Under the pieces are notes generated by a model. That model saw only the letters and a program-made list of their open reading frames with translations. It had not been told where the DNA came from and did not search any database. Below, in pieces: positions 21,683 through 39,437 of a stretch of 47,202 nt of DNA. The stretch comes from a virus (Duplodnaviria > Heunggongvirae > Uroviricota > Caudoviricetes). Where the stretch lies: IMG/VR virus record IMGVR_UViG_2861038214_000003, positions 1 through 47,202 of that record; one strand, written 5' to 3'. The translations under genes were made by a program, and so were the position numbers. Positions within the stretch are counted from its first letter, which is position 1, and each line of letters opens with the position of its first letter.

Positions 21683-22993
21683 TTAAATCCGAAGTGATGT
21701 GACTCTTCCGGTCGGTTTGACAATAGGGAATTGCTTAACGATGAAATAACCTCCGGCATCATTCGGGTGATCATTGCCAGATTTTTTATCAGGCTCCCCC
21801 TTATCATCCCAGACCTGTTGCTCCAGAGATTCGGCATATACCGGACAACGCTTCACATTAACTTTATAGCGACGCTCACCATTGGCATTGCAGAACATTG
21901 CATTCATTGAGTTAACGCGATCTTTTACTGGCGGGTTCGAGCTGTTCACCACAACGTTAAAACCAGCCTGCTTAAGCTGGGCTATATCCGTCGTACTTGC
22001 GTTACTTGATTTTCTGGAATCTCCGGAAGCATCTGGATAAATATAAATCTCCCTCACTTTCCGGTAATCATTCCCGTCATACAGCCAGAAGCGTTCTTTA
22101 ATGATGCGGATCATATCCGGCGTATCGTAGGCATTGATGATTTCAGTTACCGCACATGGAAGCCCCAAACGCAGCACATGGACGATCCCCGCCATCTTTC
22201 CAACGTTAAAATCCATCCCAATATAAATCGGCTCCCCTGGCTGCTCCACTTCTTCGCAATTATTCAGTTTCCGGTCAAACTGATGGTAAACAGTACCACT
22301 TGTCAGGTTAGTAAACTGTCCTCGAAGATAGGCTTTAATCAGCTCTGGAGGGTATGATTCAAGAAGCGAAGGAATGTAATCTGCTGGCAGGTTCTTTTCA
22401 TTATCGAAAGTAGATGCCTGCACCAGACCATACAGTGAGGCCAGCTCTGTTTTTTCACGCACGGCTTTAACAAACTGCTCGTAGACAAATTTGAATCCTT
22501 CCGGCGTGGTTGTAACGTCAATACCGTTGCGAAGTCCATCAATCTTATAACGCATACGCGCAATTATCTTGCGCCACGCCGTTCTGGCTTTTTCCTTCGG
22601 CAAAATGTCCAGTTCATCCACCAGCGCATTACCAATTTTGAAACCGACGATCGTTTGTGGCTTCTCCATCGATCTGCAGATAGTGGTTCCCCGATACTGG
22701 CGTCCGTAATAAAAGTGAACCTCTTTATTTCCCTCATTAATTTTTACGTTCAATCCCCAGTCAGCAGCAACTTCTTCCACTGTAGGGTAAAAAATATCGC
22801 GAATTTGGGGATACGTTGGCGCAAAATATCCCTGATTTATACCTGGATGCTCCCAAATCCCCTTGCATATGCCGCCACACCCAACCCATGTTTTGCCCGA
22901 GCCAAAACCAGCAATATAGGCTTTAAATTTATGGGGCATTGAAAGAAATCGCGCCTGAGGCACATTAAGCGTCGGAGAGATCATCTTCATCAC
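21683..22993 (-). CDS. Terminase large subunit
   Basis: Walker A motif AGFGSGKT near the N-terminus and acidic nuclease-like residues in the C-terminal half; 436 aa. Confidence 0.8.
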   Translation of the reverse strand: MMKMISPTLNVPQARFLSMPHKFKAYIAGFGSGKTWVGCGGICKGIWEHPGINQGYFAPTYPQIRDIFYPTVEEVAADWGLNVKINEGNKEVHFYYGRQYRGTTICRSMEKPQTIVGFKIGNALVDELDILPKEKARTAWRKIIARMRYKIDGLRNGIDVTTTPEGFKFVYEQFVKAVREKTELASLYGLVQASTFDNEKNLPADYIPSLLESYPPELIKAYLRGQFTNLTSGTVYHQFDRKLNNCEEVEQPGEPIYIGMDFNVGKMAGIVHVLRLGLPCAVTEIINAYDTPDMIRIIKERFWLYDGNDYRKVREIYIYPDASGDSRKSSNASTTDIAQLKQAGFNVVVNSSNPPVKDRVNSMNAMFCNANGERRYKVNVKRCPVYAESLEQQVWDDKGEPDKKSGNDHPNDAGGYFIVKQFPIVKPTGRVTSLRI

Positions 22994-24059
22994 TCCTTAC
23001 TCTGGCATCAACCACATTAATATTGATCGCCACAGGCTGGGGATGTTCATTATCTTCCACCGTTTCGATCTCTTTGCGCAGCTTCTGGTTTTCCATTCTG
23101 CGTCGTTCAATTTCCAGTTCCTGTAGCCGCTTATCTGCACATAAAGCCCCGCCAGCAGAAAGCAAACGCAACAATTCACGCCGGGCGGCAGCCTTATCCT
23201 CCAGCAGGATCTCAACGCCGAATTTTCCGAGTTTTGCCCCTGCATATAATTGCCGCGCATCCCCATCAAGCAGAGTGGTATCAGCCATATAAAGCTGTCC
23301 CGTTCCCTCACCGCAGCACTTCGGGCAGTCCGGATTGGGTATGACGTTATCAACAAAGCCGAGGCCTCCATATTCCGGTTCGGGTTTGCCATCTCTGGAA
23401 GCCTGCGCCGCTGCCTTGTCGAATTCTGCTATATCGCGCCACTGGTAGAGATGATTCTCGCCCCAGCAATAACGGCAGTTAACACGGCGAAATTGTGCAA
23501 GCTGATTGGGGTCGGCCAGGACAATGGCCATCAACTGACTCACCAGTAAATCCAGGTCTGCGGTATAGCGTTTCTGGTACTGATTGCGGAAGTAGCTGAT
23601 AGCGCGAAAAACCCTGGCATTTCTAAGCATACGACTGGCGTTGCTGTTAGCTGTCGCACCTTGCCCCTCATAACCGGCTAGTCGGTACGCCTCTGTCGGC
23701 TTTTTCCCCTGAGCAACAAGCATCGCAAACTTAGCCTGCTGGTCAGAAATGCCGAATTCATCGGGACAGAACGAAAATTCCTCCGCGTCGCCCTCATTCA
23801 GGCCCGCATCGAATACTGGCTTTTTTTCCTGAGATTTTTCGTTCCGCTTTTGTGCAGTCTGCGCAGATTTTTTCTGCGCACTTTTTTGCGCAGTTTTGCG
23901 CATTTCTGTCTGCGCATTTTTCGGAGGTTTTTTGATGTAACGACGGGCTGTTGCGTAATTCAGTCCCCTTGCTTCACACCATGCCACCGGAGATATACCG
24001 GAGCGGGTGTATTCAGCAATATACTCCTGCTGCAACGCCCCCCAGTCCGGTCTGCTCAT
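22965..24059 (-). CDS. Terminase small subunit-like DNA-binding protein with a long C-terminal extension
   Basis: N-terminal HTH region (MSRPDWGALQQEYIAEYTRSGISPVAWCEARGLNYATARRYIKK) typical of small terminases; overlaps the TerL start. Confidence 0.55.
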   Translation of the reverse strand: MSRPDWGALQQEYIAEYTRSGISPVAWCEARGLNYATARRYIKKPPKNAQTEMRKTAQKSAQKKSAQTAQKRNEKSQEKKPVFDAGLNEGDAEEFSFCPDEFGISDQQAKFAMLVAQGKKPTEAYRLAGYEGQGATANSNASRMLRNARVFRAISYFRNQYQKRYTADLDLLVSQLMAIVLADPNQLAQFRRVNCRYCWGENHLYQWRDIAEFDKAAAQASRDGKPEPEYGGLGFVDNVIPNPDCPKCCGEGTGQLYMADTTLLDGDARQLYAGAKLGKFGVEILLEDKAAARRELLRLLSAGGALCADKRLQELEIERRRMENQKLRKEIETVEDNEHPQPVAININVVDARVRSDEDDLSDA

Positions 24060-32314: not shown

Positions 32315-34144
32315 ATGAGCACTTCCGCATACAAGAGCAAAATTCGAACACTCCAGTGCGCGTTAAAAAACGGTGAATTTGAACCATTCATACAACATAT
32401 CCGTTTTCCATACTTTAAAAATATAGAGCAGAATGCAAGGATCGATTTTCAGTTCCCTATAACGGCTTTAGTAGGAAAAAATGGAACTAATAAAAGTTCT
32501 GTTATCAAAGCGCTATTTGGTTGCCCACATGGTAAAAATATAACTCGTTATTGGTTCACAACTGAAACAGATGAGTTTCCTGACCTAAAACTTGCTGATG
32601 GCAGTTCTCTTAAACCTAGATATATATATGGATATAAAAATGCTGATGGCCGTTTAGTTGAAATACTCCAAGCACGTATCAATGCTACCAAGAAAACAAT
32701 CGATTATTGGGAAACAAGTCGACCATCTGTTGGTGATAACATGGAGAGTATTTCGGATGATCTGGGTGCTAATAGTAATGCAACCAGATGGAAAAAAATC
32801 AAGAAGGGATTGGTTTTCCTAGATTTCAGATCGGAAATAAGTGCATTTGATAGATGTATGTATCACTCTGATTTTAAATTAAGAAAGAAGAAGAGTGGTG
32901 TATTAATTACAAAGCAAGACTATATCAGAAGCAAATCTAAATATATAAAGAAAGCTTTTGATGAAAAGCTAAGTAATTTAAGACTCTGGGGGGCGGAAAC
33001 CATTGTTAAAAATATAACCTTGGCGCCAGAACTAGTTGAGCACGTCTCATTTATATTAGGGAAAAAATATAAAGTCATTAAATTTCTTGAGCATCGGTTA
33101 TTTGGAACCAGAGGAGGAACCGCTTTACTTTCAACTGATAAGTTGAACTATACAGAAGCGTTTGCTGGAAGTGGTGAATTTGCAATAGTTTCACTAATAC
33201 TCAATATTTATTCGGCCAAACCTAATTCATTAATTCTTCTTGACGAACCAGAAGTTTCACTTCACCCTGGTGCACAAAAAAGGATGATGGATGTTCTGTA
33301 CTCTATTGTTGAGCAGAAAAAACATCAAGTGGTAATATCAACCCATTCTCCTGTTATTGTGAACACTCTTCCCAAAGATGCCATTAAATTATTTGTTTTT
33401 GATGAAGAGAGTGAAACAGCTAAAATAGTTCAAAATATAGCACCGGATGAAGCTTTTATAGAGCTAGGGCATGATATTAACAAGAAAACAATAATTGTAG
33501 AAGATAAATTAGCTAAAGCAATTATAGATAAAGCGATTAAAAATGATGAAAGATTAAGCTTATCATTTAGTGTAAGTTATATACCAGGTGGTTCGGAGAC
33601 CATTTTAAGCAAGCATCTTCCCAGTTACGCTGTGGTAGAACGCAATGATATTTTGTTTTTACTTGATGGTGATAAAAACAAAAAAATAAAACCAGTAAGA
33701 ATTAGTGAAATTGCTGATGCTGATTTAGTTAATACAATGTGCAAATATTATGGTTGCGAGTTAATTATCAATGCCAGTGGTAGTAATGGCAAAAAAAATG
33801 AACAAGAATCTAATAGACTCAAAAGGCAAGTGCTTGAGTATGCATTCAATAAAGTGCAGTATTTACCATTTGATACTCCCGAACAATTACTCATTGAAAA
33901 GGCAATTACGCCAAGTGAAAAAGAAATAATTGATTCACAGACCTGGAGTTCTAATGATCCAGAACTGTATAAGAATCAAATAAGATTATTAGCGCAACAC
34001 CTGTATGATAAAGAAGAAGTAAATGCAGAGGAAATTTTTTGCCTCCAACAAATGATGACCGCAAGACTTAAAAATGAATTGCCTGAATTTATAAAAATAA
34101 GAAAAATAATTACTCAGGCTCTTGACCGTGGTATCATTAGGTAG
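32315..34144 (+). CDS. OLD-family ABC-ATPase/TOPRIM nuclease (class 1 OLD-like, or a fused PARIS-like AriA-AriB)
   Basis: Deviant Walker A LVGKNGTNKSS, Walker B with LHP (LILLDEPEVSLHPGA), H-loop VISTHSP, then TOPRIM-like Glu (TIIVEDKLAKA) and DxD (LFLLDGDKNKK); 609 aa, AT-rich. Confidence 0.75.
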   Translation: MSTSAYKSKIRTLQCALKNGEFEPFIQHIRFPYFKNIEQNARIDFQFPITALVGKNGTNKSSVIKALFGCPHGKNITRYWFTTETDEFPDLKLADGSSLKPRYIYGYKNADGRLVEILQARINATKKTIDYWETSRPSVGDNMESISDDLGANSNATRWKKIKKGLVFLDFRSEISAFDRCMYHSDFKLRKKKSGVLITKQDYIRSKSKYIKKAFDEKLSNLRLWGAETIVKNITLAPELVEHVSFILGKKYKVIKFLEHRLFGTRGGTALLSTDKLNYTEAFAGSGEFAIVSLILNIYSAKPNSLILLDEPEVSLHPGAQKRMMDVLYSIVEQKKHQVVISTHSPVIVNTLPKDAIKLFVFDEESETAKIVQNIAPDEAFIELGHDINKKTIIVEDKLAKAIIDKAIKNDERLSLSFSVSYIPGGSETILSKHLPSYAVVERNDILFLLDGDKNKKIKPVRISEIADADLVNTMCKYYGCELIINASGSNGKKNEQESNRLKRQVLEYAFNKVQYLPFDTPEQLLIEKAITPSEKEIIDSQTWSSNDPELYKNQIRLLAQHLYDKEEVNAEEIFCLQQMMTARLKNELPEFIKIRKIITQALDRGIIR

Positions 34145-34167
34145 TGATTCTGGATGCAGAGGGAAAA

Positions 34168-35208
34168 ATGAAAAAAATCAAAGTGTTTGACTTCTTTTCC
34201 GGTTGTGGTGGAACCAGCCAAGGTTTCCATCAAGCTGGAATGGATATTGTTTTTGGCCTCGATTTCGACGTTGATGCAGCCAGTTCATTTCGTGCAAATT
34301 TCCCGCAGGCTGCTTTTATTAACTCGGACATTAGGTTAATCGACAACAATGCCATAAACAAGTTAGTAAAAAAACATCGTAATGATTACATTCTTTTTTC
34401 AGGATGTGCGCCTTGTCAACCGTACTCTAAGCAAAACTCAAATAAGAAAAATGATGATCCACGATTAGATCTATTAAAGGAATTCAGTCGCTTTGTAGAG
34501 CATTATATGCCTGATTTTATTTTTGTTGAAAACGTGCCAGGAATGCAAAAGTTTAACAAAAATGAAGGAACATTCATGATGTTTTTAGAAATGCTTTCAT
34601 CAAAGGGATATAGTGTAGATTATAAAGTAATGCCAGCTGCGTGGTACGGTGTACCACAGACGCGAGAAAGATTAGTGCTCATTGCATCCAAGGATTTTTA
34701 TGTCGCATTGCCTTCTCCTACACATGGGGTTGGAAATACTCCCTATTCAACAGTAAAGGACTGGATCGCTAATTTACCGAAGATAGAAGCAGGAGAAAAG
34801 CATAATAGTATTCCTGATCATGAAGCTGCACGCTTATCAGAGCTTAATTTACGTAGAATAAAATGCACTCCTGAAGGTGGAAGTCGAGAATTTTGGCCAG
34901 ATGAATTGATTTTAGAATGCCATCGTAACCATAAAGGGCATACAGACGTATATGGACGTTTGAGTTGGGACAAACCAGCCAGCGGACTAACAACTCGTTG
35001 TATTAGCTATTCAAATGGACGTTTTGGACATCCAACACAAAATCGAGCAATATCGGTTCGTGAAGCAGCGTGTCTACAAACATTTCCTTTGGATTATAAA
35101 TTTATTGGTTCTTTGCAATCTCGGGCTCGTCAAATAGGAAATGCGGTCCCTCCGAAGATGTCTGAAACGATTGGAAAACATTTGCTTAATATAATCAAAG
35201 CCTCCTAG
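34168..35208 (+). CDS. DNA (cytosine-5)-methyltransferase (Dcm-type)
   Basis: Motif I FDFFSGCGG, motif IV GCAPCQPYS, motif VI FVENVPG, motif VIII QTRERL, motif X GNAVPP; GAGGG RBS before the ATG at 34168 (the ORF track start at 34144 is GTG). Confidence 0.95.
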   Translation: MKKIKVFDFFSGCGGTSQGFHQAGMDIVFGLDFDVDAASSFRANFPQAAFINSDIRLIDNNAINKLVKKHRNDYILFSGCAPCQPYSKQNSNKKNDDPRLDLLKEFSRFVEHYMPDFIFVENVPGMQKFNKNEGTFMMFLEMLSSKGYSVDYKVMPAAWYGVPQTRERLVLIASKDFYVALPSPTHGVGNTPYSTVKDWIANLPKIEAGEKHNSIPDHEAARLSELNLRRIKCTPEGGSREFWPDELILECHRNHKGHTDVYGRLSWDKPASGLTTRCISYSNGRFGHPTQNRAISVREAACLQTFPLDYKFIGSLQSRARQIGNAVPPKMSETIGKHLLNIIKAS

Positions 35209-35241: not shown

Positions 35242-35688
35242 TTAATCGTGCTCACCAGACAACCTCCTGAAATTACTCTGGTAAAATGCCAGTACACGCT
35301 GCATAACTTCGCTTTTCCGGCACTCGCGACAGATTATATTCAGGCGCCTGTCGTAGCGGCGTATTTCTCCGTCTGGTAATGACCAGATAAGGTCAGGATC
35401 AACCACAACCGTTTTTTTCACCTTTGCCCTGGATAGTTTTTTGCGGGCGTTTTGCCAGTCCTTACGAGCCTGCTCAGACGGGAATAATCCGTAGCCTGAA
35501 TTGTAAACATCACCACTGGCGACCAGTTCTCTGGCGAGAGTGCTTATGTAATACCTTGATGCACCGGTTTTAGCCTCCAGAGCCCGTAACGTCTCGCGAC
35601 CGCTCAGACGTACAAGTTCAACAACCTGCCCTTTAATTTTTTCCCGCTCTTCTGGTGTAAATACTTTTGCCATAGGTGCCTCCGGCAA
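35242..35688 (-). CDS. Hypothetical phage protein, last gene of the rightward early operon
   Basis: 148-aa ORF abutting the upstream gene. Confidence 0.5.
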   Translation of the reverse strand: MPEAPMAKVFTPEEREKIKGQVVELVRLSGRETLRALEAKTGASRYYISTLARELVASGDVYNSGYGLFPSEQARKDWQNARKKLSRAKVKKTVVVDPDLIWSLPDGEIRRYDRRLNIICRECRKSEVMQRVLAFYQSNFRRLSGEHD

Positions 35689-36501
35689 TCACTTTTCCGA
35701 CACAATACGACTGGAGGAATCGAAAATCTGTCGAACAATATCCCGGTGCTTGTTCAGCTCCCGCAGCGCGGCGCAGACTCGCTCCCACTTCTGGACATGA
35801 TTTTTCGCCCGACGCAGTTCACGGTTTGCCATATGCAGCGATGGTAAAATCAGGTTATCCGCTTGCGTTTCAGTAAACGATGGCAACGACTGCACAATGT
35901 CCGCCACAGTTTCTGTTTTAATATCTTCCTGTGTTGCAGCTTCCTGTACTGGTAACGCAACACCGGCTAGCTGAGGAAAGGCTTTACCATCTGTTTCCGC
36001 TACCGATGCAGCTTTCGGCTCTGCTGGTAAATTACCGCCCGGCATGCAGTAACGAAATTTACCGTTCTGATTAACGCGAATCAGACGAGCTTTGCTGATT
36101 GCCATTGCCAGCGTTGAAGCCACTTTGCGGGATGTGGTACCGAACAACGTAGCCAGTTCATCCGCAGTTAGTGGACCACGTTGTTCAATCGTCGCAGTTA
36201 AATCGCTCTCTGAAATTTTCGCGACTGTTGCCGTGGTAGTTTCTTCCGGCAGTTCTGCCGGCGCTGGCTGTTCCTGCTGAACGTTGTTATCAGCCACACG
36301 CCAGGTGTACGCGCTTTTATCAACGAAACCAGCCTTTTTCAGTTCCCATAGTTCGTTCAGCACTTCTTCACGGCTGATATCAAGTCGCGCAGCAAGTTCT
36401 ATGGATGTGGCTTTTCCCATTGCTTTCAGTGCGTCAAAAACAGTCTCCATTAAATTTTTCTCCCGGTAAAAATTACTTCGCAATTCCTGGCTGGACGACA
36501 T
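35689..36501 (-). CDS. Hypothetical protein with two winged-helix-like segments
   Basis: 270-aa ORF; may start at the internal Met near 36450. Confidence 0.5.
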
Positions 36502-37219
36502 TCGGACGCCAGCTCTCCCAGTTAAAATTCACCCATCGCCCGCCGTTCATGGTCATGCGATCCATAATCCTCTCGCCGAGCAATGTTTTCATGGCCTCAT
36601 AATTCAGGTTTGTCAGCATCCCCACGCTGCGCATCGACGCTGTCCGGCGATCAACAATCTGGTGCAGCACCACCTGCTCGTTTTTTGTCTCGCGCTGAAT
36701 GCCAATTTCATCAAGAACCAGCAGATCCACTTGGCACAGTTCCCGCAAAAATTTTTCGCCTGATTGCCCGTCGTCATAGCTGGCGTGTAGGGCACTCATG
36801 ACATCAGCCACGGTAACCACAATCACTGTCTGGCCATCTTTCAGCAGGCGATTCCCGATAGCCGCCGCCAGATGGTTTTTTCCGGTACCAGGTTTTCCGC
36901 TGAACGCAAAATTTGTACACCCGGTCATCAGTTCATCAGCGATGGATTTCGCCTGACTCAACGCGTATCGCTGCCCTTCGTTCTGCACCTGGTAATTCGA
37001 AAACGAGCATTTGCGGTGCAATGGCTGGATGCCAGAGCGATTAAGAATTTTTTCCACCCGCAACTGACGATTCTGACGGTTGATCTCCTCACAACGTTTC
37101 TGGCCTTCGGAAAGTTGCCACTCGCGCCACTCCGCTACCGTCTTGAATGGCGCGGTTACATGTGACGGGGCCAGTCTGCGGATACGTTCAAGAACATCGC
37201 CTGTCGCAATATTTTTCAT
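36473..37219 (-). CDS. ydaV: DnaC/IstB-like AAA+ helicase loader (YdaV-like)
   Basis: Walker [16 protein letters not shown], Walker [11 protein letters not shown]. Confidence 0.85.
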
Positions 37220-37225
37220 GGTCAG

Positions 37226-38083
37226 TTACCCCCTGAAGCCTGGCGGGATCGCACTATCCGGTAACGAGACGGTGTTAACCTGTCGGAGTAACGTCTCAGG
37301 TCGAACACCTTTCGGCGCGAACAAGCCCTGGTATTCATTGGCGATGCTGTGTCGAATCACCTGCTCAGGTGAAAAACCCTGCTGGCGGAATTTTTCCAGC
37401 TCCCGTATCGCCCCGTTAGCGCCCTGCTCCGTTCGAATCGGTTTTCGCAATGCCTGGCGAAATTCAACCCACTCACGCCAAAGCGAGACAGAAATCCAGT
37501 TCGGCAAAGCAATATCCAGAGGGTCAAACTTTTTGACACCTCGATTCCCCCGGGGGGGATTTAGGGGGGGATCTGTTTTTAGATCTTTATCTGTATCTTT
37601 ATTAGTTGCCTTTGTGTTGACATCATGTTCAAACACCACTTCAACATCTGTTTGAACACCTGTTAAATTTCTCTCTTGTTTTGTTTGAACATCTGCTTCC
37701 TTTCTGCTTCTTCTGGCCTGAACAGATGCTTTTCCTGCGGCTGATTTTTTGGTTAATTTTTCCCTGACTGATGCCAGATCTTCCTCAATCCGAAGATGCA
37801 CCCATTCCTCGCCGTTATCGCAAAAAAACTCCTGCAAGGATGGTTCAACATCAGCCCATCGCTCGTTAGTCAGACGGGCAATTTTTGCCAGCCTGTTTTT
37901 AGGTATTGGCTTTCCTGTTTGCCAGTAATTGAACATCAGCAACAAATACGCACCATGCTCCTCTGCTGACAAATGCATGGTGTCAGCCAGGTAATCAGCT
38001 ATGTACAGTTGCATGTATGGTAATGCGGCCATAATTGCCCCGTATGATGCTGCCCGGTGGCTTAGAATAAGCACAAACAGCAT
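37226..38083 (-). CDS. ydaU: Replication initiation protein (YdaU-like, lambda O-analogous position)
   Basis: 285 aa, the same length as K-12 YdaU as I recall it; low-complexity linker encoded over the repeat-rich DNA segment. Confidence 0.75.
   Translation of the reverse strand: MLFVLILSHRAASYGAIMAALPYMQLYIADYLADTMHLSAEEHGAYLLLMFNYWQTGKPIPKNRLAKIARLTNERWADVEPSLQEFFCDNGEEWVHLRIEEDLASVREKLTKKSAAGKASVQARRSRKEADVQTKQERNLTGVQTDVEVVFEHDVNTKATNKDTDKDLKTDPPLNPPRGNRGVKKFDPLDIALPNWISVSLWREWVEFRQALRKPIRTEQGANGAIRELEKFRQQGFSPEQVIRHSIANEYQGLFAPKGVRPETLLRQVNTVSLPDSAIPPGFRG
37523..37694. promoter_or_regulatory. Candidate origin of replication inside the ydaU-like ORF
   Basis: Palindrome GTCAAActtttTTTGAC, C5G7 and G7 tracts, two GATC sites, AT-rich TATCTG/TATCTT repeats and three iteron-like TGTTCAAACACC / TGTTTGAACACC / TGTTTGAACATC copies. 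Confidence 0.4.
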
Positions 38084-38095
38084 GGAAACTTTTGC

Positions 38096-38518
38096 TTAAT
38101 GAACAATGACAGAATCGTCGGAAGAACCGCCGCCGCTGAAATGCGCTTTCCGGTAAACGGCTTGGACTGCATCATCATGCGCATCAATTGCCGTACTTAA
38201 CGCTTCCTGCGCCGCCAGTAATGCACGGCGTTCCAGGGTATCGAAGATGCAGAGTCGGTGACGCAGCTCGCGCGGAAGGATTGCCAGAATTGCTGGGATC
38301 AGCTTCTGAATTTTTTCTCTTTGCGTTTTCGTTTCACCTTTCAACCAACGGTGATAGATATTCTTCTGATTGTTCCAGTCCTTGCCTGGAACCAGGGGCA
38401 ATTCGCCGCCCCCCTGGCGCAGATATTCTTCAGTAATTGCATTGGCTACCCATGCCTGCCCTTTTTCGGCTGCTAGGGCAAACAACACTGATTCGATGTG
38501 CTCATGCTTGATTTTCAT
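38096..38518 (-). CDS. ydaT: YdaT-like early protein
   Basis: 140 aa, the same length as K-12 YdaT as I recall it; follows the cro-like gene. Confidence 0.7.
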   Translation of the reverse strand: MKIKHEHIESVLFALAAEKGQAWVANAITEEYLRQGGGELPLVPGKDWNNQKNIYHRWLKGETKTQREKIQKLIPAILAILPRELRHRLCIFDTLERRALLAAQEALSTAIDAHDDAVQAVYRKAHFSGGGSSDDSVIVH

Positions 38519-38540
38519 GAATCATTTGCCTCTTGATGTT

Positions 38541-38837
38541 TCAGGTATGATCAAATGAGGATTTGTTACTGTCATTTAGTTGCTTCACTGACATATTCTG
38601 CGAACAACATGCCGAACGTCGTAAATATGACCAGTCAATATCAGGACGAAGTTCTTCGCACAGAACCTCACCTCTTGTTGCACGTTCAATTGCTGGACAT
38701 CTCTCGGCAGGCAATTGACGTACCCCTTTGATCCATTGATTTACGCTTGGAGGTGATACACCTAAAAGCCTAGCCATTGCTGATTGCCCACCGACAACAG
38801 CACAAGCTTGCTTGAATGAATAGTTCTCTTTTTTCAT
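38541..38837 (-). CDS. ydaS: Cro-like HTH regulator (YdaS-like)
   Basis: 98 aa, HTH ..FKQACAVVGGQSAMARLLGVSPPSVNQW..; divergent from the repressor gene. Confidence 0.8.
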   Translation of the reverse strand: MKKENYSFKQACAVVGGQSAMARLLGVSPPSVNQWIKGVRQLPAERCPAIERATRGEVLCEELRPDIDWSYLRRSACCSQNMSVKQLNDSNKSSFDHT

Positions 38838-38863: not shown

Positions 38864-38893
38864 ATATTAGGCGACGCCTAACGCAATTGTCAA
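38864..38893 (-). promoter_or_regulatory. pR-like sigma70 promoter (TTGACA, 18-nt spacer, TAATAT) with operator palindrome TTAGGCGACGCCTAA (38867-38881) in the spacer/-10
   Basis: Read on the minus strand about 25 nt upstream of the GGAG RBS of the cro-like gene. Confidence 0.55.
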
Positions 38894-38960: not shown

Positions 38961-39437
38961 ATGCTTAGTGGTAAAGACTTAGGCCGAGCGATAGAGCAGG
39001 CCATTAACAAAAAAATCGCATCGGGATCCGTCAAATCAAAGGCGGAGGTCGCACGCCACTTCAAAGTCCAACCACCATCAATTTATGACTGGATTAAGAA
39101 AGGCTCTATAAGTAAAGATAAACTTCCAGAATTATGGCGTTTCTTTTCTGATGTTGTTGGTCCAGAGCATTGGGGGCTTAACGAATACCCCATACCAACC
39201 CCCACCAATTCAGATACAAAAAGTGAACTTTTAGATATAAACAACCTTTATCAAGCAGCCTCTGATGAAATAAGAGCGATTGTAGCTTTCCTGTTATCTG
39301 GAAATGCTACAGAACCAGATTGGGTTGACCACGATGTTCGCGCCTATATAGCAGCGATGGAAATGAAAGTGGGTAAGTATCTGAAAGCTCTAGAATCTGA
39401 ACGGAAAAGCCAGAACATCACAAAAACTGGAACTTAA
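38961..39437 (+). CDS. racR: Prophage repressor (RacR-like)
   Basis: 158 aa with HTH and AGGAGA RBS; lies between the divergent promoters. Confidence 0.8.
   Translation: MLSGKDLGRAIEQAINKKIASGSVKSKAEVARHFKVQPPSIYDWIKKGSISKDKLPELWRFFSDVVGPEHWGLNEYPIPTPTNSDTKSELLDINNLYQAASDEIRAIVAFLLSGNATEPDWVDHDVRAYIAAMEMKVGKYLKALESERKSQNITKTGT

Follow-up and report, generated by a model that had tools for sequence, protein, structure and literature searches.

Where in a Rac-type prophage does DNA replication begin, and what does the DNA look like at that point? Rac ranks among the most intensively studied cryptic prophages, and the autonomous origin of its Escherichia coli K-12 copy, oriJ, has been genetically defined for decades. 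Here, we analyzed a stretch of 47,202 nucleotides (IMG/VR record IMGVR_UViG_2861038214_000003, positions 1 to 47,202; hereafter, the window), which is a Rac-type E. coli prophage with the lambda-like gene order repressor, cro, cII, initiator, and helicase loader. An earlier interpretation made from the sequence of the window (the sequence-only reading) had placed a candidate origin inside the initiator gene ydaU, mirroring the position of the lambda origin in gene O. In lambdoid phages, the middle of gene O holds the origin, which is composed of iterons and an AT-rich tract (PMC7466680), and Rac is reported to possess an active origin, oriJ (PMC3945230). Judging from sequence comparisons, we estimate a probability of roughly 0.75 that positions 37547-37690 constitute the cis-acting replication origin of this prophage, most likely oriJ itself, embedded in the codons of the disordered linker of YdaU.

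The segment and the gene that contains it comprise the following features.

37226-38083, minus strand: ydaU, an open reading frame of 285 amino acids as annotated, with Pfam DUF1376 at amino acids 22-104
37772-38020, minus strand: region coding for the DUF1376 N-terminal domain, a putative origin-binding winged helix
37683-37690, minus strand: outlying upstream iteron GTTCAAAC, 33 bp before the core array and within a 12-nt segment that is specific to the Rac lineage in the alignment
37616-37657, minus strand: core iteron array, in gene direction GTTCAAAC (37657-37650), GTTGAAG (37645-37639), GTTTGAAC (37634-37627), and GTCAAC (37621-37616)
37571-37612, minus strand: A-rich, strand-asymmetric tract AAGGCAACTAATAAAGATACAGATAAAGATCTAAAAACAGAT, the presumed DNA-unwinding element, which contains a degenerate (GATACA)n hexamer microsatellite and both GATC sites
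37576-37589: mosaic junction between one module (N-domain, iterons, and AT tract) and another (C-domain and helicase loader)
37547-37570, minus strand: GC element, C7-TAAAT-C7G5 on the coding strand and C5G7-ATTTA-G7 on the plus strand (C5G7 at 37547-37558, second G7 at 37564-37570)
37519-37541: imperfect palindrome GAGGGTCAAA-ctt-TTTGAC(a)CCTC with the core GTCAAA-ctt-TTTGAC at 37523-37537, whose membership in the origin is doubtful

Clustered sites in the linker codons of ydaU

Every feature that the sequence-only reading had named was present where it had been placed. The motif TGTTYRAACA occurred in three exact copies in the entire 47 kb, all inside the minus-strand ydaU open reading frame and within 66 bp of one another (TGTTCAAACA at 37626, and TGTTTGAACA at 37649 and 37682), against 0.29 expected from shuffled sequences, only 1 of 100 of which reached three copies. 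The signal lies in the clustering of exact copies, because the pattern with one mismatch was at background (8 found versus 8.2 expected). When repeated 7-mers were counted in 100-bp windows, the region around 37611-37720 formed the second densest cluster, with a score of 13 against a mean of 0.82 and a standard deviation of 1.35 (top 0.06%). The three iteron-like copies described previously therefore exist as such, but they belong to a larger array of five to six related sites at 37616-37690, spaced 11-13 or 33 bp apart. Its core sites repeat the unit AACANNTGTT at intervals of 12, 11, and 13 bp.

A coincidence of short motifs in an AT-rich coding stretch could account for some of the originally described features. 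The two GATC sites are present (37570-37573 and 37582-37585), but their number is within chance (2 in 172 bp versus approximately 0.7 expected), as is the 6-bp palindrome in the form first described; the background level of one-mismatch copies points the same way. The number and proximity of the exact copies and the density of the repeat cluster are not accommodated by chance, and the family-wide positional enrichment presented below effectively refutes this explanation, to which we assign a practically negligible probability.

Conservation by codon position was assessed in 14 enterobacterial lineage representatives with 77-100% N-domain identity. In the domain-coding part, 67, 79, and 17 of 100 sites were invariant at the first, second, and third codon positions, respectively; the corresponding numbers in the iteron core were 9, 8, and 7 of 18. 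Fisher's test on the third positions gave p = 0.001. The codon-position signature of protein selection is gone in the array, where conservation is independent of codon position.

Recurrence of the array across DUF1376 genes

Three scans of IMG/VR provided 240 DUF1376 loci, which were reduced to 76 non-redundant representatives. A de novo count of 7-mers at +310 to +470 put GTTCAAC (GTTCAAC/GTTGAAC) on top, with 91 occurrences in 51 of the 76 loci against 1.56 expected, corresponding to an approximately 58-fold enrichment. From -1000 to +1500, GTTSAAC was near zero except in three places. The main one was a sharp peak at +325 to +450 (89 hits, with 0.58 per locus in the highest 25-nt bin), just after the N-domain; two minor peaks lay inside the domain-coding part, where 28 family hits at +175 to +200 fell in two codon phases. 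The Rac core array aligns with these GTTSAAC arrays of related genes. GTTSAAC-type arrays recur at the same place in the DUF1376 initiator genes of distant phages. Representative examples are as follows.

Pseudomonas phage PfDIW6: AACGACCGTTCAACGACCGTTGAAATCCCGTTGAACGAAAACTCAACGA, then AATAAAGAAGAGAAGAGAAG..., a GTTSAAC-type array at the same place
Pseudomonas phage AH02: array, then (GATACA)5
Bordetella phage IFTN6: sites at 22-bp spacing, then (AACCAG)n, then CACCCCCTAACCCCCGCAAGCGGGGG
Moraxella phage Mcat18: AACGACCGTTC twice, then AACCAATAACCA...

The distances from site to site were 11, 22, 33, 44, and 55 bp, and the sites were distributed over the three codon phases as 28/36/27 (chi-square p = 0.45). 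In the Moraxella and Pseudomonas phages, tandem 11-mers of the AACGACCGTTC type are read in different frames and encode different amino acids. Because a protein-level repeat cannot generate a strict 11-bp period in all frames, these patterns indicate that the repetition resides in the DNA and not in the peptide.

What follows the array is also shared. A tract of period 6 and at least 20 nt was found after the array in 33 of the 76 representatives and in none of three control segments, with a coding strand of 51% A and 29% C. Of the 76, 8 had the motif C(5+) N2-6 C(5+) N0-8 G(5+). All of its copies lay at +400 to +500, with each of the three codon phases represented; no other copy was present in 205 kb on either strand, and the motif precedes at least three kinds of downstream peptide.

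These data bear on the possibility that the repeats arise only because the linker peptide is itself repetitive and of low complexity (DVQT/GVQT/DVEV; DTDKD; PPLNPP), so that the protein is selected and the DNA has no cis function. The region does encode a hydrophilic disordered linker, three of the Rac sites share one frame, the hexamer microsatellites are in frame and encode NQ/DT/PT/EEKR-type repeats, and the C/G runs translate into a loosely conserved [PT]PxxPxxG. Such a peptide would not explain an out-of-frame 11-bp period that uses the codon phases equally, identical tandem 11-mers that yield different amino acids, or third positions in the array that are conserved like the first and second. 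Nor would it explain a C-run motif that is kept while its residues change with phase (PP, TP, SP) and that relies on the rarest proline codon. We therefore regard a purely peptide-driven origin of the repeats as improbable.

Some further observations concern the sites themselves. Relative to the family consensus (37616-37690 compared with loci L076 and L002), the Rac-lineage sites show a symmetrical half-site change from AACGNNCGTT to AACANNTGTT and, in all three strong copies, a centre that is 1 bp wider (GTTCAAC to GTTCAAAC), a pattern that resembles co-evolved specificity more than random decay. One more exact GTTGAAC is present at 37843-37849 inside the DUF1376-coding region, and two such sites 11 bp apart are found in PfDIW6 (L002, 2697-2727); they may be auxiliary initiator sites, or simply VE/LN codons. 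DUF1376 subfamilies without GTTSAAC (L149-L165; L128, L152, L159, and L009) carry other repeats at the same place, either GGCAATGCC-type repeats followed by (CAACAC)n or AACCCA/TGGGTT inverted repeats with (CCCAAT)n behind them, as would fit DNA-binding specificities that have diverged.

The family is large, with 14,096 clusters at 50% identity (E <= 1e-3) for the DUF1376 N-domain. Plasmids hardly ever carry it (14 of 72,556 records, most of them megaplasmids), and the one small DUF1376 plasmid examined has its own RepM, so that the plasmid search gives no independent proof of replicon function.

Covariation of repeat type and N-domain

Recombinant initiators provided a natural comparison. The O protein of Gifsy-1, in which a Phage_rep_O N-domain is joined to the same type of C-domain as in YdaU, has six lambda-type ATCCCCGAAAACGGGGAT iterons at the same place in its gene. 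In phage 673R7, the gene for 'O' (an N-domain without a Pfam match and again the same C-domain) has GTTAC/GTAAC repeats, after which come a purine-rich tract and CTCCCCCTAAATCCCCCTCG. In the opposite arrangement, DUF1376 N-domains attached to at least four different C-modules, such as the DnaT-domain version in phage Rac-SA53, keep GTTSAAC-type sites and the AT block. In these comparisons, the repeat type follows the N-domain and not the C-domain, as expected of initiator-binding sites.

The points of exchange were located directly downstream of the AT tract. Matches of ydaU to E. coli genomes split into query positions 364-858 (N-domain, iterons, and AT tract) or 1-362 (C-domain), and the variants in IMG/VR and in Rac-SA53 diverge directly after GATCTAAAA into at least four different C-terminal modules. 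Junctions at this position are as expected if the N-domain and the origin have to stay together.

Domain architecture of YdaU

YdaU consists of two parts, an N-terminal DUF1376 domain, which alone is reported by Pfam, and a C-terminal part that matched the PHROG annotations 'primosomal protein' and 'replication initiation O-like'. The C-domain was 46% identical (E = 1e-30) to that of the Gifsy-1 'replication protein O'. The annotated start (ATG at 38083) probably precedes the true one by 17 codons; the latter would be the ATG at 38032, giving 268 amino acids and an 807-nt gene. The sequence MAALPYMQLY at this start is conserved in Pseudomonas phages, GGGG stands 5 nt ahead of the ATG, and family matches begin at residue 1 in nearly all representatives.

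A single-sequence AlphaFold model was poor (predicted local distance difference test, pLDDT, of 49), and an alignment of 79 diverse homologues was used instead, which resulted in a mean pLDDT of 82.5. The model was divided as follows.

Residues 10-123: N-domain, pLDDT > 90, helix-helix-helix-strand-strand and then a long helix
Residues 124-170: linker, pLDDT ~50, unstructured
Residues 171-240: C-domain, pLDDT > 93, folded

The linker corresponds to 37523-37663 of the window, a stretch that takes in the palindrome and the C/G runs as well as the AT tract and the core array. The candidate origin occupies nt 342-510 of the 807-nt gene, inside a predicted disordered linker between two confidently folded domains. 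The modelled N-domain has a winged-helix fold with modest structural similarity to the winged-helix domains of ORC/Cdc6 and of a plasmid initiator. A search of PDB sequences with the DUF1376 profile returned no match, BLASTP of YdaU against lambda O was not significant, and hhalign of DUF1376 against the N-domains of lambda and Gifsy-1 O detected no relation (probability 0.14).

The A-rich tract

Adenine and thymine make up 31 of the 42 positions (74%) of the tract at 37571-37612, whose coding strand has a purine at 30 of the 42. No 40-bp duplex in the early operon (35242-38837) is less stable than the one in this tract, and the least stable 30-mer of the tract ranks 68th of 47,172 in the window (top 0.14%). 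Across the 14 lineages, the 13-mer AACTAATAAAGAT is invariant including its third codon positions, and 6 of 7 third positions in the AT block are invariant. The number of hexamers varies among the relatives of Rac, where (GATACA)n has n = 1 to 7. In the Rac gene, the coding strand reads GATACAGATAAAGAT and then C7-TAAAT-C7G5, which matches the family order of tract and C/G element. In one Rac-type ydaU (L012, IMG/VR 2537561944_000017), the gene is broken within the AT tract at approximately nt 440, where ...AATAAAGATAC is followed by unrelated TGAACCGCCCCGGGTTTCC; the proposed unwinding element may have been the site of an insertion or a rearrangement in this gene.

The C/G runs and the palindrome

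Beyond the A-rich tract, the coding strand continues with CCCCCCCTAAATCCCCCCCGGGGG and then the palindrome. The whole window has only five G/C runs that reach a length of 7, and two of them lie here, 5 nt apart. The element uses the rarest proline codon four times, together with CGG and GGG, and the chance of this codon choice is ~2e-6. It is invariant in approximately 45 Rac-type genes. Hairpin folding of the element was no better than that of shuffled sequences (z = -0.5). The plus-strand G7-ATTTA-G7 can be parsed by eye as GGG-G-GGG-ATTTA-GGG-G-GGG (four G3+ runs with loops of 1-7 nt), whereas the runs of 5-6 in relatives cannot be parsed in this way.

The sequence-only reading had also proposed these homopolymers as hotspots of slipped-strand mutation that could inactivate the initiator. 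A rival explanation of the segment is that they form a contingency (phase-variable) switch, in which slipped-strand mispairing would turn the initiator on and off. Frame-breaking variants are indeed present in three complete genomes, namely Nord58 (G7 to G6), 2015C-3107 (both runs G6), and RM12275 (a duplication and a 1-base loss), and in-frame 12-bp duplications of CCCCCCCTAAAT were found in RM9872 and L013. They are rare. Nearly all matches among 741 complete E. coli genomes keep the exact run length, no frameshift occurred among the approximately 45 Rac-type IMG/VR genes, and the rare frameshifted run lengths are indistinguishable from homopolymer sequencing errors. Slippage occurs, or mis-sequencing does, but rarely. 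The frequent run-length polymorphism of a phase-variable locus was not seen in either set, and the position of the motif is conserved across distant lineages with run lengths of 5-7, as for a fixed element. We consider a contingency switch very unlikely, and the tract is better described as a conserved element flanking the origin.

The GTCAAA/TTTGAC palindrome was present and longer than originally described, with a hairpin z of -3.9, but it is not conserved: uncompensated substitutions break it in L018, L026, and L036, and phage 673R7 has no copy of it in its C-domain gene, which is 87% identical. As it is not conserved, it carries little weight here, and its interpretation as an analogue of the lambda ori palindrome was set aside. 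A scan for DnaA boxes revealed no enrichment (90 matches versus 103 expected).

Comparison with known origins

Around ydaU, the gene neighbourhood is as follows.

36473-37219, minus strand: ydaV, a DnaC/IstB-like ATPase (Pfam IstB_IS21 and Bac_DnaA; NCBIfam PRK12377, with DnaC similarity; PHROG 'DnaC-like helicase loader')
38096-38518, minus strand: ydaT, encoding the CII-like YdaT
38541-38837, minus strand: ydaS, Cro-like
38864-38893, minus strand: pR-like promoter upstream of ydaS, TTGACA-18-TAATAT, 10/12 matches, by consensus match only
38961-39437, plus strand: racR, a divergent gene for a helix-turn-helix repressor

The product of ydaV is the presumed partner of the YdaU C-domain, and transcription from the predicted pR-like promoter would cross the origin. 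As in lambda and the lambdoid/Stx phages, the segment lies in the middle of the initiator gene and downstream of a pR-like promoter, and its order is initiator sites, A-rich strand-asymmetric tract, and GC-richer or palindromic flank. The offsets within the gene are also close: the lambda iterons are at nt 349-433 of gene O and its A-rich tract at approximately 434-482, while the Rac iterons, counted from the ATG at 38032, are at nt 342-418 and the AT tract at 421-462. In both systems, the N-domain with the origin and the C-domain with the loader form separately exchangeable modules.

The components are different. Lambda O has a Phage_rep_O N-domain (PF04492), to which DUF1376 has no detectable relation. 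The lambda iterons are 18-bp inverted repeats approximately 20-24 bp apart, whereas the Rac sites are 7-8-bp cores at 11-13 bp. Unlike in lambda, the putative unwinding tract of Rac is a hexamer microsatellite, and Rac has the C-run/C-run/G-run element where lambda has its palindrome and a DnaC-like loader instead of lambda P. Membership in the homologous ori-lambda family, defined by TCCCTCAAAACGAGGGA-type iterons and a PF04492 N-domain, was rejected, the iteron sequences being unrelated. By analogy, then, the Rac element would work like ori-lambda without belonging to its family. It shares with lambda-type origins the location inside the initiator gene between the N- and C-domains, at least three repeated putative sites, and an adjacent AT-rich tract.

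Closer in its C-terminal half is protein O of the Gifsy-1/SPN3UB/mEpX1 type, with a homologous C-domain, a DnaC-like partner, and an origin in the linker; its N-domain, in contrast, is Phage_rep_O and its iterons are of the lambda type. With the iteron-binding winged-helix initiators of plasmids (RepA_N-type 'MDR initiator', PDB 4pta) and with the ORC/Cdc6 winged helix, YdaU has only the modest structural similarity noted above and no sequence similarity. Taken together, the gene order, the position in the gene, the disordered linker, the family-wide repeats, and the covariation with the N-domain support the earlier proposal that the origin lies where an O-analogous initiator gene encodes its linker. 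The best explanation of the segment is the lambda plan of an origin inside gene O, carried out with an unrelated winged-helix initiator domain, short phased sites, a microsatellite tract, and a C/G-run flank.

Relation to oriJ

The ydaU DNA of the window is 99.9-100% identical to that of E. coli K-12 and many other strains, and 37511-37740 is completely identical to MG1655, as well as to the deposited phage vB_EcoS-683R6. The segment thus belongs to the same prophage in which oriJ was defined. The key papers on oriJ are those of Diaz and Pritchard (1978-79) and Potrykus et al. (2000), and oriJ-based plasmids are cited in the literature. Our literature search for oriJ, ydaU, and DUF1376, which did not extend to the original mapping papers, yielded no sequence-level definition of oriJ. 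No origin is annotated at this place in the MG1655 reference record, and ydaU is named there only 'DUF1376 domain-containing protein'.

Several points weigh against the segment as the Rac origin, or as oriJ. The sole sequence-level pointer to oriJ that we found, a pair of published quantitative PCR (qPCR) primers 'framing oriJ', maps to 36808-36962 inside ydaV and not to ydaU, 560-880 bp from the array (within 0.9 kb). According to a 2026 preprint, K-12 Rac is replication-defective after excision. The AT tract is short, and the window contains DNA that is richer in A+T. The Rac array has no exact copy of the family consensus GTTSAAC, its centres being expanded by 1 bp and its spacing (12/11/13 bp) less regular, which could reflect either co-evolved specificity or decay. 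Finally, for the A-rich microsatellite and the Pro/Gly-coding C/G runs, a protein-level reading (a hydrophilic linker with a [PT]PxxPxxG motif) is also plausible, and the DNA-level role of these two elements is for this reason less secure than that of the iterons.

The primer positions also raise the question of whether the array is a genuine YdaU-binding site with another cis function, such as autoregulation of ydaU-ydaV or service as a preferred recombination linker, with oriJ elsewhere, for example in or beyond ydaV. The coincidence of the mosaic junction with a conserved block would fit this, and the extra GTTGAAC in the domain-coding part (37843-37849), together with the 28 family hits there, hints at roles beyond a compact origin. 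On the other hand, ydaV contains neither a repeat cluster nor a low-stability tract, and its amplicon was used as a copy-number probe only. The linkage of N-domain and origin known from lambda explains the junction, and the canonical grammar of an origin is seen here: phased sites and, behind them, a readily melted, strand-asymmetric tract, at the position equivalent to that in lambda. We judge this alternative unlikely, although less so than the others considered here.

Proposed mechanism and origin class

If the ydaU linker segment is the origin, initiation may proceed as follows. The winged-helix DUF1376 N-domain of YdaU would bind the row of short, near-palindromic sites (AACANNTGTT / GTTCAAAC in Rac; AACGNNCGTT / GTTSAAC in the family), and the spacing of approximately one helical turn would align the bound proteins on one face of the DNA. 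The resulting nucleoprotein array could destabilize the 42-bp A-rich tract next to it. At the other end of this tract stands the C7/C7G5 element, possibly a GC clamp or boundary. The C-domain, by homology to that of Gifsy-1 O, would then recruit the DnaC-like YdaV and host DnaB onto the opened DNA.

A broader generalization, which we offer tentatively and think somewhat more apt to fail than to hold, is that the DUF1376 (YdaU) proteins are a large uncharacterized class of phage replication initiators (~14,000 clusters) whose genes carry their cognate origin in a fixed three-part grammar. This grammar would consist of 7-bp GTTSAAC palindromes, helically locked whatever the reading frame, a strand-asymmetric, in-frame hexanucleotide microsatellite as the unwinding or loading zone, and a C-run/C-run/G-run structural boundary, with approximately 170 bp serving at once as protein linker, origin, and module-exchange breakpoint. 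The Rac segment has the site array, the hexamer tract, and the C/G element of this proposed DUF1376/YdaU-associated class, with variant sites. Slippage in the microsatellite (1-7 or more copies) could tune origin strength or linker length, and the boundary could act as a GC clamp, a hairpin, or an i-motif/G-quadruplex (G4).

If these proposals are correct, oriJ gains a sequence-level address in a gene whose function, like the origin itself, is not annotated in the reference genome, and DUF1376 becomes an origin-binding winged helix with a predicted recognition site. Origins could then be annotated automatically across the ~14,000 clusters, in phages of Proteobacteria and beyond. The segment would also be a clean natural example of dual coding, in which a DNA signal of 11-bp period is threaded through a reading frame; the DNA role and the protein role are separable by synonymous recoding.

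Other features of the window

An intact ydaW (DUF1627; 35689-36501, minus strand) of 270 amino acids is present, whereas in K-12/DH1 its annotation is that of a truncated gene or a pseudogene. The prophage also encodes a TET-associated glycosyltransferase (PF20691; 24250-25203, minus strand), a C-5 cytosine methyltransferase (34144-35208, plus strand), and an AAA_21/AbiEii-like ATPase (32315-34144, plus strand), which suggests DNA hypermodification and defence cargo without a counterpart in K-12 Rac. The densest repeat cluster of the whole window, at 23831-23920, comprises six TGCGCA motifs separated by T-runs. It is located within the N-terminal part of the small-terminase gene (22965-24059, minus strand), adjoining the large-terminase gene (21683-22993, minus strand), and looks like a candidate pac or terminase-recognition site.

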